From Candidatus Magasanikiibacteriota bacterium (GTDB taxonomy: Bacteria; Patescibacteriota; Patescibacteriia; Magasanikbacterales; 2-02-FULL-50-9b), in contig CALRDW010000002.1 of the NCBI GenBank assembly GCA_943355025.1, positions 7,252-71,251 on the forward strand: 64,000 nt of DNA, in the 5' to 3' direction. A program made the translations under genes and the position numbers. Below the pieces are notes generated by a model. It did no database searches. It worked only from the letters and a program-made list of their open reading frames with translations, and was not told the DNA's origin. Shown in pieces: positions 2,422 through 63,933 of the stretch; position 1 is the stretch's first letter, and the number at the start of each line of letters is the position of its first letter.

Positions 2422-2427
2422 GAGGTG

Positions 2428-2458
2428 GCGCGTTTCTTAACCGAAGCGCGTTTTTTTA
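2428..2458 (+). terminator. rho-independent terminator after ORF 922..2421
   Basis: Stem cgcgtttc (2429..2436) / gaagcgcg (2443..2450): 8 bp including one G-U pair. Loop ttaacc. Followed by a T7 run at 2451..2457, directly after the stop codon. Confidence 0.5.
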
Positions 2459-2647
2459 TTTTCAACAGGATTCGGAGGTTTGCGAGCAATACAAAAACAG
2501 CGATTCAACAGAGGCCCAAAGAAAATAAAGTTGCCTCTCAGGGGGAGATGAACACGAGCCCCCGTCGAGACAACTTTATTTTCTTTGGGTATACGTTCAT
2601 TCGGGTGTTATACTGCTCCCATGCTTCCTAATCCTTTTGAAAAACTA
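2451..2647 (+). repeat. copy 1 of a ~195-bp direct repeat containing a nested covarying hairpin, an extended -10 box and an MLPNPF start codon
   Basis: Aligns base-for-base at ~80% identity with 29622..29818. Outer palindrome arms are cccaaagaaaataaagttg (2515..2533) and caactttattttctttggg (2571..2589). Inner stem is ggggg (2541..2545) / ccccc (2559..2563) around the loop agatgaacacgag. Downstream lie TGTTATACT (2606..2614) and an ATG at 2621 that opens a truncated MLPNPFEKLL... ORF ending at 2744..2746. Confidence 0.7.
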
Positions 2648-2650
2648 TTG

Positions 2651-2681
2651 CCGCAGAGCATATTGCGGCATTTTTGTTTTT
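2651..2681 (+). terminator. terminator-like hairpin plus T-run inside the repeat-derived short ORF, upstream of the epimerase gene
   Basis: Stem ccgca (2651..2655) / tgcgg (2664..2668) with loop gagcatat, followed by catttttgttttt. Only a 5-bp stem, so a weak intrinsic terminator or attenuator. Confidence 0.35.
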
Positions 2682-28973: not shown

Positions 28974-29148
28974 CAAACATGGGCAAACCCTGTTGGGAGC
29001 ATGGTTCAATTCCGTCGCGTGTCACTTATTTGTGGCTCACGACGGTTTTTTTATTTTGCAGCTCCGTTGACAAAAAACAATGTTTATACTAGTATCCAAA
29101 AAGAACTTTAACTGCCGCCACATTGTGTGGTCACACTCCGAGGACACG

Positions 29149-29562
29149 ATGAAGAACCGATTGAGTGTTCAATTGCGCAAAACGCCACGACTTCCGATGC
29201 CCTATGTCGTTTTCTATGAAAATGGCGAGGCGGTTCCACTTTTGTGTGTAACGTGGCAGACAGCGATGGCACGGCTCGACGAAATGTTCCGCATGCCGGA
29301 CAGTAAATTGTTTCGCGGTGATATGACATACGCCGAGGCGTATCACATCGCGTCGCTTCTCGAAAGTTTTCTTGAACTTGGGCTGGTCAAAGCGCGCGGC
29401 TTCATTGACGAGATGATCGAAGATCGTATCGCGCGCGGCATCTCAACTGATGTTGGCGACGCGGTGAGCGTGCTCGTTGTTCCGGTGCCGACTGCATCTG
29501 AAAAAATGGTGGCTGAAGATTATGCTGTAGGGGCAACTGGCGAAAAAAAATCTCAGTGGTGA
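29149..29562 (+). CDS. hypothetical protein (tandem paralog of 28296..28973)
   Basis: See previous entry. Start moved to ATG 29149. GC-rich. Confidence 0.35.
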   Translation: MKNRLSVQLRKTPRLPMPYVVFYENGEAVPLLCVTWQTAMARLDEMFRMPDSKLFRGDMTYAEAYHIASLLESFLELGLVKARGFIDEMIEDRIARGISTDVGDAVSVLVVPVPTASEKMVAEDYAVGATGEKKSQW

Positions 29563-29621
29563 AAGCTCAGGCGTAGAAGTTTGATAGCGTGCAATGGTAA
29601 CCTGATTGGTTGCTCTGCACG

Positions 29622-29818
29622 TTTTTTATTTTCAACAGAATTCGGAAGTTTATGAGTAGTTCAATACAGTGATTCAACATGCACCCAAAGAATTAAATAT
29701 TACTTCTCAGGGAGAGATGAACATGAGCTCCCGTCGAAGTAATATTTAATTCTTTGGGGATACGTTCATTCAGGTGTTATACTACTCCCATGCTTCCCAA
29801 TCCTTTTCAAAAACCTCT
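29622..29818 (+). repeat. copy 2 of the ~195-bp direct repeat / structured leader
   Basis: Arms cccaaagaattaaatattacttc (29684..29706) and gaagtaatatttaattctttggg (29736..29758) are perfect reverse complements. Inner stem gggag (29710..29714) / ctccc (29728..29732) surrounds the loop agatgaacatgag. TGTTATACT lies at 29775..29783 and the ATG at 29790. Confidence 0.7.
29775..29792 (+). promoter_or_regulatory. extended -10 promoter (TGnTATACT) positioned for a leaderless transcript starting at ATG 29790
   Basis: TG-T-TATACT, then 6 nt, then ATG. No Shine-Dalgarno is present. An identical arrangement is found at 2606..2623. Confidence 0.4.
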
Positions 29819-30992
29819 CACAGAGTTTAAAGACACAGATCCTCTTAAGAACAGAGAGATTGTTAGAGAACTTCTCGGACCAGAGGGAGTACATAAATAT
29901 AGAAAGATATTAGGAGACACTTCAGACCCTACTCCAAAGCGAGACAAAGAACTCTCTAAAGAAGATCTCCTTGCCATGGCGGCAGAAGCCCACTCTAAAA
30001 TAGATACACTGTCCAGAGACTCAGTAAAGCCAATCCTCGAGCGCCTCATAGAGCGCCAATACACTTCTCAGATCCAATCTCTGCAAGAGATTGGATTCCT
30101 AGAACCTCTCGTACCACAAAAAAAGAAAGGCTTTACCATTTTCAAATCAAAAGAACCAGAAGAAACTACACCAGAGAAACTAGGGGCTACAGACATCCTC
30201 GGTACCTTCCGAGAAGTTCCAACCGAAGAAGCCATCAAAAATCACTTCCTCTCCATTCCTAACATCAAACAAAAGATAGATCAAGGATTCACCCGACTTC
30301 TCATCGTTCCATTCGGAACTTCTCTCGACACCCTCCGCTCTAAAACAGGAGAGCTTATCAAGAAGCATAAGAAAGAAAACAAACTTCTCGCAGAAGATGG
30401 AACAGAATTAGAACTCGACACTACAACACCACTCTGGGCATGGGACGGCTATAACAACGCAGACAAGAGCGGGAAACTCGTCTATTACCCAGAGCAATTC
30501 AATAAAGAAAATCACAACGGTACAACTAAAACAGAACTCCTTTCGTCCACCCCGTCAAACCAAGCAAACTCTTCCACACCAAACACCAATCCATTCCCCG
30601 GCTACCATATTCTTCTTATTCAGGAAGACACACAGATTCCACGAGAAGGAAAGGGAACAGCAAAAGCAGGGAGAGATAAAATAGAAGCAGGTAAGTCTCC
30701 AAACGACTATTTAGAACTTCTAAGAACTGATCCTAACTACTCAAAAGAACTCGGTCTCACTCCAGAAGATTGGCTCACTCTCTTTGCAACGAATCTTAAT
30801 CAGAAGAACAAAGTTATTAATGACTGGCAGTCAAATAAAGACAGTATTAATTATCTAGTCGGTAGTTATTTTCCAGATTCTGACGACGTCCCGAACGCGT
30901 GCTGGGACCGTGGCGCTCGGCGGGCGCACTTGTACGGGGGCGAGCCGACGAACGCGTACGAGCATTTTGGCGTTGCTGGCGCGGTGGGGTGA
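29790..30992 (+). CDS. hypothetical protein; second member of the paralog family (see 48..884)
   Basis: Homology blocks listed under 48..884. The ATG at 29790 (MLPNPFQKP) is the one conserved in both repeat copies; track start 29754 lies inside the structured element. The last ~130 nt (DDVPNACWDRGARRAHLYGGEPTNAYEHFGVAGAVG) are sharply GC-rich, unlike the rest of the gene. Confidence 0.5.
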   Translation: MLPNPFQKPLTEFKDTDPLKNREIVRELLGPEGVHKYRKILGDTSDPTPKRDKELSKEDLLAMAAEAHSKIDTLSRDSVKPILERLIERQYTSQIQSLQEIGFLEPLVPQKKKGFTIFKSKEPEETTPEKLGATDILGTFREVPTEEAIKNHFLSIPNIKQKIDQGFTRLLIVPFGTSLDTLRSKTGELIKKHKKENKLLAEDGTELELDTTTPLWAWDGYNNADKSGKLVYYPEQFNKENHNGTTKTELLSSTPSNQANSSTPNTNPFPGYHILLIQEDTQIPREGKGTAKAGRDKIEAGKSPNDYLELLRTDPNYSKELGLTPEDWLTLFATNLNQKNKVINDWQSNKDSINYLVGSYFPDSDDVPNACWDRGARRAHLYGGEPTNAYEHFGVAGAVG

Positions 30993-31218
30993 ATTAAACT
31001 TTAATTTTTCATTCTTTCTTTAACTTTTATTTTTATTTTTACGGCGAAAAGTAACCTGCTGTGATGTAGGCTGCCGTAAATTCCGACGCTAGAGCAGTGT
31101 GGAAATTGTAAATATAAATATATTTTTACACCACTGAAGCCTAGGAGCAAAAGTAATTATAATCCCCACCGCTCCGTTGTGAAAAACATAAATCAACAGT
31201 AGTTGAGATTTCGGCAGA

Positions 31219-55128: not shown

Positions 55129-55767
55129 ATGCCAGACATCGGGGAGCATCGCCTGATTTTAATTGGACCACAAGGTTCAGGCAAAGGTACACAAGGTGAA
55201 CTTTTGCAGGTGTATTTGCAAATACCGACGATTTCAACAGGTCAGCTCTGCCGCGCTGAAATTGAAAAGGGAACAGACATTGGAAAAAGTATTGAAGGAT
55301 TTGTGCATGATGGGGCATTGGTGCCTGATGCGATTGTCATTGCGCTTTTGAAGGAACGTATTCGTGAGTACGATGCTCAAGAAGGTTTTATTATTGATGG
55401 ATTTCCGCGCACAGTTGAACAGGCTCGTGATGCTGAGGGATGGCTCCATCCAACAAAAGTTATCGTGATTGAAATTAGTAAGAAACTCGCGATTGATCGC
55501 ATGTCCGCGCGTCGTGCATGCAGTCAGTGTCGATATAAAACAACTGCCAGTAATGTTGGACTGCATGGAAGTCAGTGTCCGCGCTGTCCCGGCAAACTTA
55601 TCCAGCGCGATGATGATCGTCCAGAAGCGATTCAAAAACGACTCGACATGTACAGCGCTGTGACCGAGCCCGTTGTCGAATATTACAAACAGACAGGCCT
55701 TGCGGAACGTTTCAACGGATCTCTTTCGATTCCGCTTGTGTTCATGGAAATCGCGCACGTGCTATAA
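55129..55767 (+). CDS. adk: adenylate kinase (zinc-lid type)
   Basis: ILIGPQGSGKGTQ P-loop. Lid CSQC...CPRC zinc knuckle. Confidence 0.93.
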   Translation: MPDIGEHRLILIGPQGSGKGTQGELLQVYLQIPTISTGQLCRAEIEKGTDIGKSIEGFVHDGALVPDAIVIALLKERIREYDAQEGFIIDGFPRTVEQARDAEGWLHPTKVIVIEISKKLAIDRMSARRACSQCRYKTTASNVGLHGSQCPRCPGKLIQRDDDRPEAIQKRLDMYSAVTEPVVEYYKQTGLAERFNGSLSIPLVFMEIAHVL

Positions 55768-55775
55768 TTAATTAC

Positions 55776-56588
55776 ATGCGCAAAACATTTATAAAAACTC
55801 CTGAGGCTTTGGTTGCAATCCGCGAAGGCGGAAAAATTCTTGGTGAAATTTTAGAGCGCGTTGCGGCACTCGTACGTGTCGGCGCAACAACTCTGGAACT
55901 TGATCAAGCTGCCGAAAAATTTATTCGTGAATGTGGTGGCCGCCCAGCTTTTTTAGCATATCAAATTTCACCGCGCTATCCCGCTTACCCTGCATCGCTG
56001 TGTGTTTCAGTGAACGACGAGGTTGTCCACGGAATTCCAAAAGAATCCGTGGTTCTTCGCGATGGGGATATCGTTGGTCTTGATATTGGTATGGAATGGC
56101 CTTACAAAAAAGGTGGTGTTGCGGGTTTTTATACGGACACAGCATTAACGGTTGGTGTGGGAGAGGTTTCATCATCAAATAAAGCGCTTATGACACGGAC
56201 GCATGACTCCCTTTTCACTGGGATTGCTGCAGCGCGCGCGGGTAGCGAAATTCGCGATATAAGTCGTGCTGTTGAAAATGCGCTTCGTCCATTTGGTTAT
56301 GGAATTGTTCGGGATCTTGTTGGACACGGTGTTGGATACGCAGTTCACGAAGATCCGCAGGTTCCAAATTTTTTCGATCGAAATTCTCCGCGCGTTCCTC
56401 TTGAAGCAGGAATGGTTCTTGCGCTTGAACCAATGGTAAATCTTGGGCACGCCGATGTTTATACGGAGCGCGATGGCTGGACAATCAAAACGGAAGATGG
56501 TTCGCGGTCGGCACATTTTGAACACACAATAATTATTACCGAGCAGGGTGCAGAAATAGTTACGCTGCGTCCACAGGAATTATCGTAG
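55776..56588 (+). CDS. map: type I methionine aminopeptidase
   Basis: Pita-bread metal ligands in the contexts D..G.D.G, HGVGY..HE, E.. 270 aa. Confidence 0.93.
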   Translation: MRKTFIKTPEALVAIREGGKILGEILERVAALVRVGATTLELDQAAEKFIRECGGRPAFLAYQISPRYPAYPASLCVSVNDEVVHGIPKESVVLRDGDIVGLDIGMEWPYKKGGVAGFYTDTALTVGVGEVSSSNKALMTRTHDSLFTGIAAARAGSEIRDISRAVENALRPFGYGIVRDLVGHGVGYAVHEDPQVPNFFDRNSPRVPLEAGMVLALEPMVNLGHADVYTERDGWTIKTEDGSRSAHFEHTIIITEQGAEIVTLRPQELS

Positions 56589-63818: not shown

Positions 63819-63860
63819 CAGTTCCTCTCGCAGCTAAATTTTTTTGCTGCTTTTTAAAAT

Positions 63861-63933
<73 letters not shown>

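Follow-up and report, generated by a model that had tools for sequence, protein, structure and literature searches.

Where does transcription begin when a promoter-like motif, a long hairpin and a conserved start codon are packed into a single repeated element? The question is raised by a stretch of 64,000 nucleotides from Candidatus Magasanikiibacteriota bacterium (contig CALRDW010000002.1, positions 7,252 to 71,251), hereafter the window, in which a direct repeat occurs at 2452-2645 (copy 1) and at 29622-29814 (copy 2), with an identity of approximately 81-84% between the copies. Each copy contains the hairpin, an extended -10 motif and an ATG. If RNA polymerase starts at the ATG, the mRNA has no leader and the hairpin lies outside it; if transcription starts upstream of the hairpin, the hairpin becomes part of a structured RNA leader. 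A model that saw the letters alone (the sequence-only reading) had predicted a leaderless transcript and a hairpin that acts in non-transcribed DNA as a cruciform or an operator. The comparison of related sequences described below leads us to a leaderless, extended -10 cassette promoter with the inner hairpin outside the mRNA as what is probably the best explanation overall.

An extended -10 element next to a conserved start codon

The promoter region of copy 2, the copy that precedes an intact gene, and the equivalent part of copy 1 contain the following features.

29754..29759, + strand: weak -35-like hexamer TTGGGG, 18-nt spacer to the -10 hexamer, doubling as the end of the 3' arm of the hairpin
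29775..29783, + strand: extended -10 element, TG at 29775-29776 and hexamer TATACT at 29778-29783
29784..29792, + strand: discriminator ACTCCC and ATG, with the predicted transcription start site (TSS) at the A, 29790
29790..30992, + strand: P0001, a 400-aa open reading frame (ORF) of a multi-paralogue family, the first 43 codons of which lie inside the homogenised cassette
2606..2623, + strand: TGTTATACT, 6 nt and ATG of copy 1, an orphan promoter and start, identical in the related contig L004

In both copies, the extended -10 element reads TGTTATACT (2606-2614 and 29775-29783, + strand) and is separated by 6 nt from the ATG (2621-2623 and 29790-29792), the A of which is the 7th base after the hexamer. 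Direct reading of the sequence thus bears out the positions on which the leaderless prediction was built, including the placement of the ATG 7 nt after the last T. The pattern TGNTATACT occurs 4 times in the window compared with 0.71 expected, a count that none of 100 shuffles reaches, and the 24-nt block around the motif is present in the window only in the two copies, with 0.00 expected.

In the related contigs, TATACT is found 12 times in the 4200 nt upstream of 70 genes that do not belong to the family, that is, 2.86 times per kb upstream compared with 0.27 per kb overall, a 10.6-fold enrichment. It is the commonest -10-like hexamer upstream of the other genes of this lineage, often accompanied by TGn (TGTTATACT, TGATATACT), and some promoters of the lineage have TTGACA-type -35 boxes. 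A profile search of all fetched DNA identified 12 promoter-bearing copies of the element, and in all 12, TG(T/C)TATACT followed by 6 nt and ATG or GTG (the latter in one copy) is invariant, position -1 being C and position +1 a purine. The -35-like hexamer is TTGGGG in copy 2 and TTGAGT in most other copies. To judge from these comparisons, TG(T/C)TATACT very likely functions as the extended -10 element in a sigma-70-type promoter of the family gene.

The ATG at 29790, which opens the 400-aa ORF 29790-30992 (N-terminus MLPNPFQKPL...), is on comparative grounds the true start of the gene, because the same N-terminus is encoded by other codons and preceded by other DNA in paralogues that lack the cassette. 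The MLPNPFxKP N-terminus is preserved with synonymous codons and unrelated upstream DNA at L013:3173, where the gene starts with ATG TTA CCG AAT CCA TTT, and at L004:1226, where it starts with ATG TTG CCG AAT CCG TTT, 10 nt past the stop codon of the preceding paralogue.

Probable leaderless transcription

In 49 bacteria, including a candidate phyla radiation (CPR) species, the centre of the TSS positions lies 7 bp downstream of the -10 element (PMC12641261), and on this basis the TSS of the cassette promoter is predicted to coincide with the A of the ATG. Such proximity is rare in the lineage: a -10-like hexamer lies 6-8 nt from the start codon in only 1 of 73 non-family genes, the usual distance being 9-34 nt. 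It is kept, with upstream DNA that is otherwise unrelated, in distant orthologues of the family protein (at most 40% identity, some with other N-termini):

L027: TGTTATAGT-ACCCTC-ATG
L033: TGGTATACT-ACCCTC-ATG
L044: TATTCT, 6 nt, ATG
L008 and L010: TG(G/T)TAAAAT, 7 nt, ATG
L009: TG(G/T)TAAAAT, 8 nt, ATG

There is no Shine-Dalgarno (SD)-like motif in the 6 nt before the ATG. The sequence-only reading was correct on this point as well, yet the observation carries no evidential weight: in contigs L001-L021, an SD-like 4-mer precedes only 7 of the 73 non-family genes, and since the other 66 also lack one, a missing SD is uninformative for the leaderless case. Taken at the level of sequence, the cassette has all the properties by which a leaderless extended -10 promoter would be recognized, namely, the spacing, a genuine start, no SD and the conserved TG, and we consider it likely that the transcript is leaderless or has a leader of at most 1-2 nt.

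The events at the promoter would then be as follows. A sigma-70-type RNA polymerase would recognize TG(T/C)TATACT as an extended -10 element and would start at, or 1-2 nt from, the A of the ATG (the G in the GTG copy); the mRNA would be leaderless and translated from its 5'-terminal start codon. The promoter of copy 2 (29775-29792) would drive the intact gene at 29790-30992, whereas copy 1 (2606-2623) would provide a promoter and approximately 12 codons that run into a terminator.

Several observations weigh against a leaderless transcript. The true TSS could be displaced from the predicted A by 1-3 nt in either direction, and the searchable literature yielded no report of leaderless mRNA or leaderless translation in CPR bacteria. 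The cassette copies are related by gene conversion, because of which their invariance amounts to roughly one observation, and the weight falls on the 3-4 independent distant lineages. The two cassette-free paralogues mentioned above are not leaderless: the one at L013:3173 has TGCTATACT 37 nt upstream as well as GAGGA, and the one at L004:1226, 10 nt past the preceding stop, is operonic. The 5' flank, as one outer arm of the palindrome, pairs with the -10/ATG region in the other, an arrangement that makes sense only if some longer RNA exists. A weak -10-like hexamer, TACAGT, is located just before the hairpin, and in 8 of 9 copies, folding favours the minus strand over the plus strand by 5-12 kcal/mol. 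The promoter motif, its spacing and its conservation are upheld by the sequences compared, as are the genuine start codon and, for the hairpin discussed below, its compensatory pairing and its dispensability in other lineages; the position of the TSS, leaderless translation and any function of the hairpin stay predicted.

Short leaders without an SD seem to be used generally in this lineage, with an SD-like motif in 7 of 73 genes and the -10 element typically 9-34 nt from the start. A second leaderless-type geometry occurs in the window at 55760-55778, in a ribosomal-protein/secY/adk/map cluster, where TGCTATAAT overlaps the stop codon of the adenylate kinase gene and ends 7 nt before the ATG of the methionine aminopeptidase gene (55776-56588).

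The cassette and its copies

The repeat belongs to a cassette of approximately 320 bp that combines about 190 bp of upstream DNA with the first 43 codons of the gene. The upstream element is represented by 14 copies or part-copies, 2 of which are truncated fragments; among the 12 with the promoter block, 10 precede an intact family gene and 2 are the orphan stub. A full copy consists of five parts: a conserved 5' flank of approximately 60 nt that begins at a T-run; two arms of approximately 23 nt that diverge strongly among copies and are complementary within each copy; a conserved apex of 29-33 nt (TCAGGGAGAGATAAACAGGAACTCCCGTC) with its own 5-bp mini-stem; a near-invariant block, GAGTATACGTTCATTCAAGTG(T/C)TATACT(A/G)CT(C/T)CC; and the start codon with the coding region. 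Arms and apices reassort between copies, such that L004a, for example, combines stem E with apex A.

The coding part of the cassette has a history distinct from that of the rest of the gene. Between cassette-bearing paralogues, 83-93% of the identical residues within codons 1-43 share the same codon, compared with 35-50% in the rest of the gene. P0001 and P0020 agree in 41 of 42 N-terminal residues and in 85% of the codons of this region; beyond it, the values are 40% and 35%. This codon pattern indicates, so far as sequence comparison can tell, gene conversion or a recent spread of the ~320-bp promoter/5' cassette among old paralogues.

In copy 1, an orphan stub, no more than about 12 family-like codons survive (MLPNPFEKLLPQ), after which comes a terminator-like hairpin with a T-run, and a second one precedes the copy:

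2427..2462, + strand: terminator-like hairpin and T-run that close the upstream gene 922-2421, directly before copy 1
2452..2514, + strand: 5' flank of copy 1, from the repeat alignment
2649..2680, + strand: terminator-like hairpin and T-run, 28 nt past the orphan ATG

The orphan promoter would yield a transcript of approximately 50-60 nt, or an attenuator, ahead of the epimerase gene at 2707; L004 shows the same arrangement. A 35-nt inverted repeat, 74% complementary, links the flank of copy 1 (2465-2499) with 2675-2709 just before the epimerase start. The latter segment holds a -10-like TACACT that resembles the cassette promoter and may be the trace of a second, decayed right arm.

The apex pattern has no exact match in the GTDB representative genomes or in IMG/VR, and the promoter/ATG block has no exact-pattern match in the JGI metagenomes. 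The cassette is confined to a narrow lineage and was met only in ENA, NCBI and Logan assemblies.

A hairpin with variable arms and a conserved apex

Upstream of the promoter, the two copies share the architecture of a long quasi-palindrome.

29622..29683, + strand: 5' flank of copy 2, beginning at the T-run; left outer arm, pairing imperfectly with 29759-29814
29684..29758, + strand: inner hairpin of copy 2, perfect 23-bp arms (29684-29706 and 29736-29758) around the conserved 29-nt apex
29710-29714/29728-29732, + strand: 5-bp mini-stem in the apex of copy 2
2515..2589, + strand: inner hairpin of copy 1, arms 2515-2537 and 2567-2589, which differ from those of copy 2 and contain one C.A mismatch; apex mini-stem GGGGG/CCCCC

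With +1 at 29790, the inner hairpin of copy 2 extends from -106 to -32, which corrects the earlier estimate of about -40 to -130, and its 3' foot runs into the -35 hexamer, to which it contributes the TTG with its final bases. The entire ~190 nt form one long quasi-palindrome (folding z = -6.9 and -9.5 for the two copies), the outer arms of which take in the -10 box and the first 8 codons; the left flank resembles a decayed mirror image of the promoter/start region.

Among the 9 full copies, 95.9% of the cells in the hairpin pairing are paired. Changes on both sides of a pair are found at 15 pairs, compared with 6.4 +/- 1.6 in shuffles (0 of 500) and 1-6 with slid partners, and the 5-bp mini-stem covaries as well. 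Judging from these alignments, the pairing of the hairpin is clearly maintained by compensatory change. The form of the hairpin varies: that of L023 has just a 10-bp stem with an 11-nt loop, the copy in L001c is truncated, and in L019 (2183-2327, before P0020) an insert of approximately 85 nt replaces the 13-nt apical loop and creates a three-way junction (z = -7.5); this insert has no Rfam match. No comparable inverted repeat lies upstream of the distant orthologues that keep the -10/ATG arrangement, and because these lineages have the promoter geometry without the hairpin, the hairpin is not required for the promoter. It is best described, from its pattern of sequence change, as a real, lineage-specific and structure-constrained appendage of the cassette.

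Does this appendage have a function? It could be a palindrome without one that arose when the promoter and the start of the gene were duplicated in inverted orientation, and that gene conversion has distributed along with the cassette, with the promoter still at work. Replication template-switching corrects quasipalindromes, and the arms could be kept complementary by that process. The mirror-image character of the left flank fits this possibility, as do the unstable centre (deletion in L023, insertion in L019, truncation in L001c), the reassortment of stems and apices typified by L004a, and the lineages that keep the promoter and have no hairpin. However, conservation covers the apical 29-33 nt as well as both flanks, and only the arms vary, which is the opposite of a centre that decays fastest; the stem is kept in every intact copy; and compensatory change extends to the mini-stem. 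Conservation of the apex and covariation in the mini-stem speak for a degree of constraint, and we regard a functionless palindrome as unlikely, although it has more in its favour than any of the alternatives that follow.

The structured-leader alternative, which we consider distinctly unlikely, would place the TSS upstream of the hairpin, either at a weak promoter in the flank, such as TACAGT approximately 15 nt before the stem, or through transcriptional read-through. The ~190-nt element would then be an RNA leader in which the outer helix sequesters the AUG and the 5' hairpin stabilises or regulates the mRNA, and TGTTATACT would be incidental or a second promoter. In its favour, the whole element folds into a single long hairpin, with the z values given above; in the consensus fold, the 5' flank and the -10/ATG region are joined in a helix; the outer helix displays one exchange of C-G for U-A and several U.G variants, and TACAGT is kept in most copies. 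Yet there is no consensus + strand promoter in the 5' flank, where TACAGT, the best candidate, matches at only 4 of 6 positions, lacks both TG and a -35 element and is CACAGT in one copy. Read-through also meets obstacles. The upstream gene is divergent in 4 contexts (HU, a class-I tRNA synthetase, a metallo-beta-lactamase-fold protein and RelA/SpoT). In the co-directional contexts, the cassette begins at a T-run, with a clear terminator-like hairpin ahead of it in copy 1 and a T-run directly before it in copy 2, L015 and L016; the counterpart in copy 2 is a weak 6-bp stem with a T-run, weaker than that of copy 1 and not flagged by the terminator scan. An apex that varies between a 10-bp stem and a three-way junction does not resemble a leader that binds a ligand, the -10/ATG geometry persists in distant orthologues that have no leader structure, and the element matches no Rfam family. 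At the gathering threshold, Rfam finds only the tRNA-Met gene at 63860-63931 in the whole window, and at E <= 10, the interval 29560-29960 and L019 give only generic microRNA-precursor-like hairpins far below threshold; a known structured RNA of Rfam 15 was rejected on these grounds.

Alternatively, the structured RNA could come from the minus strand and oppose or regulate the sense promoter, originating within the conserved first ~130 nt of the coding region or at a minus-strand TATACT at the foot of the hairpin, which 7 of the 12 copies possess. Folding of the minus strand is more favourable in 8 of 9 copies, with an advantage of up to 12 kcal/mol; the consensus fold of this strand comprises 65 pairs at -58.4 kcal/mol, compared with 47 pairs and -49.8 kcal/mol for the plus strand, and shows many GC/GU alternations; internal C.A mismatches of the plus strand are G.U pairs on the minus strand; and the synonymous sites of codons 2-43 are unusually conserved. 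This comparison of G.U with A.C mismatches and of folding energies leans towards the minus strand as the strand of origin, but the copies are related rather than independent, which reduces the asymmetry to very few observations, and the predicted fold of each strand favours its own wobbles, with U.G pairs also present on the plus strand at the foot of the stem. Moreover, no minus-strand promoter is common to all copies (the foot hexamer is TATCCC in copy 2 and TATACC in copy 1), no minus-strand terminator follows, and gene conversion explains the synonymous conservation equally well. An antisense RNA thus appears improbable.

It is more improbable still that the element is a mobile palindromic repeat, akin to a miniature inverted-repeat transposable element (MITE) with an outward promoter, that inserted before many genes. 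The ~190-nt imperfect palindrome does have ends that resemble terminal inverted repeats (TTTTCAACAGAATTCGGAAG ... CTTCCTAATCCTTTTGAAAA), it is present in many copies, and one paralogue has two upstream contexts that join at the element. Nevertheless, 10 of 12 copies are attached to a single gene family, the remaining two being truncated remnants, and the right 'terminal repeat' is codons 2-8 of the gene, the residues of which are conserved with other codons where the element is absent; as the right arm is conserved coding sequence, an autonomous MITE was rejected. Target-site duplications were not noticed, the flanks not having been systematically examined, and the searches of GTDB representative genomes, JGI metagenomes and IMG/VR returned 0 matches. 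The weakest alternative, a phase-variation switch in which the promoter inverts between the outer inverted repeats that bracket it, can be set aside, given that the orientation is identical in all 12 copies, which come from several samples, no recombinase gene or domain is encoded by the neighbouring genes and the right repeat is coding sequence.

Two further candidates were tried and rejected. The inner hairpin is not an intrinsic terminator: it is A+T-rich and is followed by GATACGTTCATTC without a U-run, and a terminator scan of 29000-31200 found none. An integron attC site does not fit an element at the 5' end of a gene with a conserved apex and variable arms, and there is no integrase in the flanks examined.

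To return to the leaderless cassette promoter, the hairpin would lie upstream of the TSS, as the sequence-only reading had it, but the roles proposed there are disfavoured. The arms are hypervariable yet complementary, which speaks against a sequence-specific operator located in them, a candidate that was rejected for this reason. A cruciform is disfavoured as well: a 29-nt spacer between arms makes cruciform extrusion unfavourable. With low confidence, we suggest that the hairpin acts as a nucleic-acid structure rather than as a sequence-specific operator. Transcripts entering from outside, on either strand, would be blocked, processed or silenced by the 23-bp stem and by the outer helix that joins the 5' flank with the -10/AUG region, and only promoter-initiated transcripts with a 5'-terminal AUG would then be translated. 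Extending this reasoning, the hairpin with its hypervariable arms and conserved apex could be a structural element near promoters that is new for CPR bacteria. It would serve as an insulator or switch of modular build, copied together with the leaderless cassette, with arms free to vary or selected to differ among paralogues, and as a DNA or RNA structure it would control which transcripts of this large, rapidly diversifying family are translated, for example, by silencing those that do not start exactly at the AUG. We put this forward as a speculation that is unlikely to be right.

A different 15-bp inverted repeat surrounds a -10-like region at L026:241-288, upstream of P0021, an orthologue with 39% identity that also starts with MLPNPF. 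It occupies a 44-nt divergent intergenic spacer and hints that promoter-embedded palindromes recur in this family.

The protein family and its genomic neighbourhoods

The family of the 400-aa ORF is small, with 27 clusters among 5.8 billion proteins. Its relatives in named genomes come mostly from metagenome-assembled genomes (MAGs) of Patescibacteria/CPR (Berkelbacteria, Gottesmanbacteria, Magasanikiibacteriota and Saccharibacteria), along with one from a MAG labelled Gammaproteobacteria. At least 10 paralogues of 370-400 aa are encoded in the window and in the related contigs L001, L004, L013, L015, L016, L019, L021 and L023, which seem to derive from a small CPR genome, often adjoining genes for glycan biosynthesis (glycosyltransferase, aminotransferase, NeuB); the proteins P0011 and P0013 were not placed on any contig. 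Searches of Pfam, NCBIfam and PADLOC and a sequence-profile search of the PDB gave no family assignment for the ORF. The AlphaFold2 model of a family protein is confident (predicted local distance difference test, pLDDT, 82.7), and Foldseek found no match for it in the PDB or BFVD. The window opens (3-884) inside a distant paralogue with 25-31% identity, which in a homologous contig (L004:91-2365) directly follows the paralogue P0015, an arrangement that places family members also in tandem.

The dispersed copies of the cassette seem to act as recombination breakpoints, or substrates, that reshuffle gene neighbourhoods. Two side observations concern this behaviour. P0016 is found in two samples with two upstream neighbourhoods, one containing an HD-domain gene, the other xseB (L016:9821-10001 vs L017:3303-3481), and the two sequences differ within the 5' flank and hairpin of the cassette and are identical from the apex on. 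In the window, copies 1 and 2 are direct repeats that bracket a cluster of approximately 27 kb with a lower G+C content (~41%; between them, 2706-28162). The ORFs scanned in this cluster include an NAD-dependent epimerase at each end and a DegT-type aminotransferase, and in the matching stretch of L004, glycosyltransferases and a methyltransferase are encoded as well. The entire glycan-biosynthesis cluster would be excised if the two repeats recombined.

Implications and comparison with known systems

If the TSS is confirmed, the cassette would give the Patescibacteria a clear example of leaderless expression that is conserved phylogenetically. As a compact native promoter of approximately 45 bp (-35-like element, TG, TATACT, 6 nt and ATG), it could aid the emerging genetics of this group. 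It also marks a large family of uncharacterised proteins that are often encoded beside glycan-biosynthesis genes. The hairpin, in turn, offers a defined test case for whether compensatory change in a palindrome results from RNA function, DNA structure or template-switching.

Among known repeats, the Correia elements of Neisseria and the enterobacterial ERIC/IRU are palindromic intergenic repeats with promoters or processed RNA hairpins. The element of the cassette, we presume, loosely resembles them as a multi-copy imperfect palindrome of 100-200 nt with a promoter and a stem of approximately 23 bp, the size of an RNase III substrate. Unlike Correia and ERIC, its right arm is the coding start of one family, and neither target duplications nor evidence of mobility were noticed. 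With quasipalindromes and cruciform-forming sequences, it shares a perfect inverted repeat upstream of, and overlapping, the -35 element; it differs in the 29 nt between its arms, which make spontaneous extrusion unlikely.

A closer parallel is provided by the leaderless genes of Actinobacteria and Deinococcus-Thermus; the leaderless transcriptome of Mycobacterium tuberculosis was reportedly described by Cortes et al. in 2013. In those genes, as in the cassette, a TANNNT-type -10 element ends 6 nt before ATG or GTG, an SD would not fit in between, and a purine occupies the predicted +1. The difference is that here the organisms are CPR/Patescibacteria, the start is predicted from the sequence, and the geometry is conserved in one family and rare otherwise (1 of 73 genes). 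Finally, the promoter itself is similar to the extended -10 (TGnTATAAT) class, with TG one base before the hexamer, an 18-nt spacer and a weak -35 element (TTGGGG/TTGAGT), for the poor quality of which the TG of an extended -10 compensates; it departs from the typical members of this class in having the local consensus TATACT as its hexamer and a -35 element that coincides with the foot of a long palindrome.

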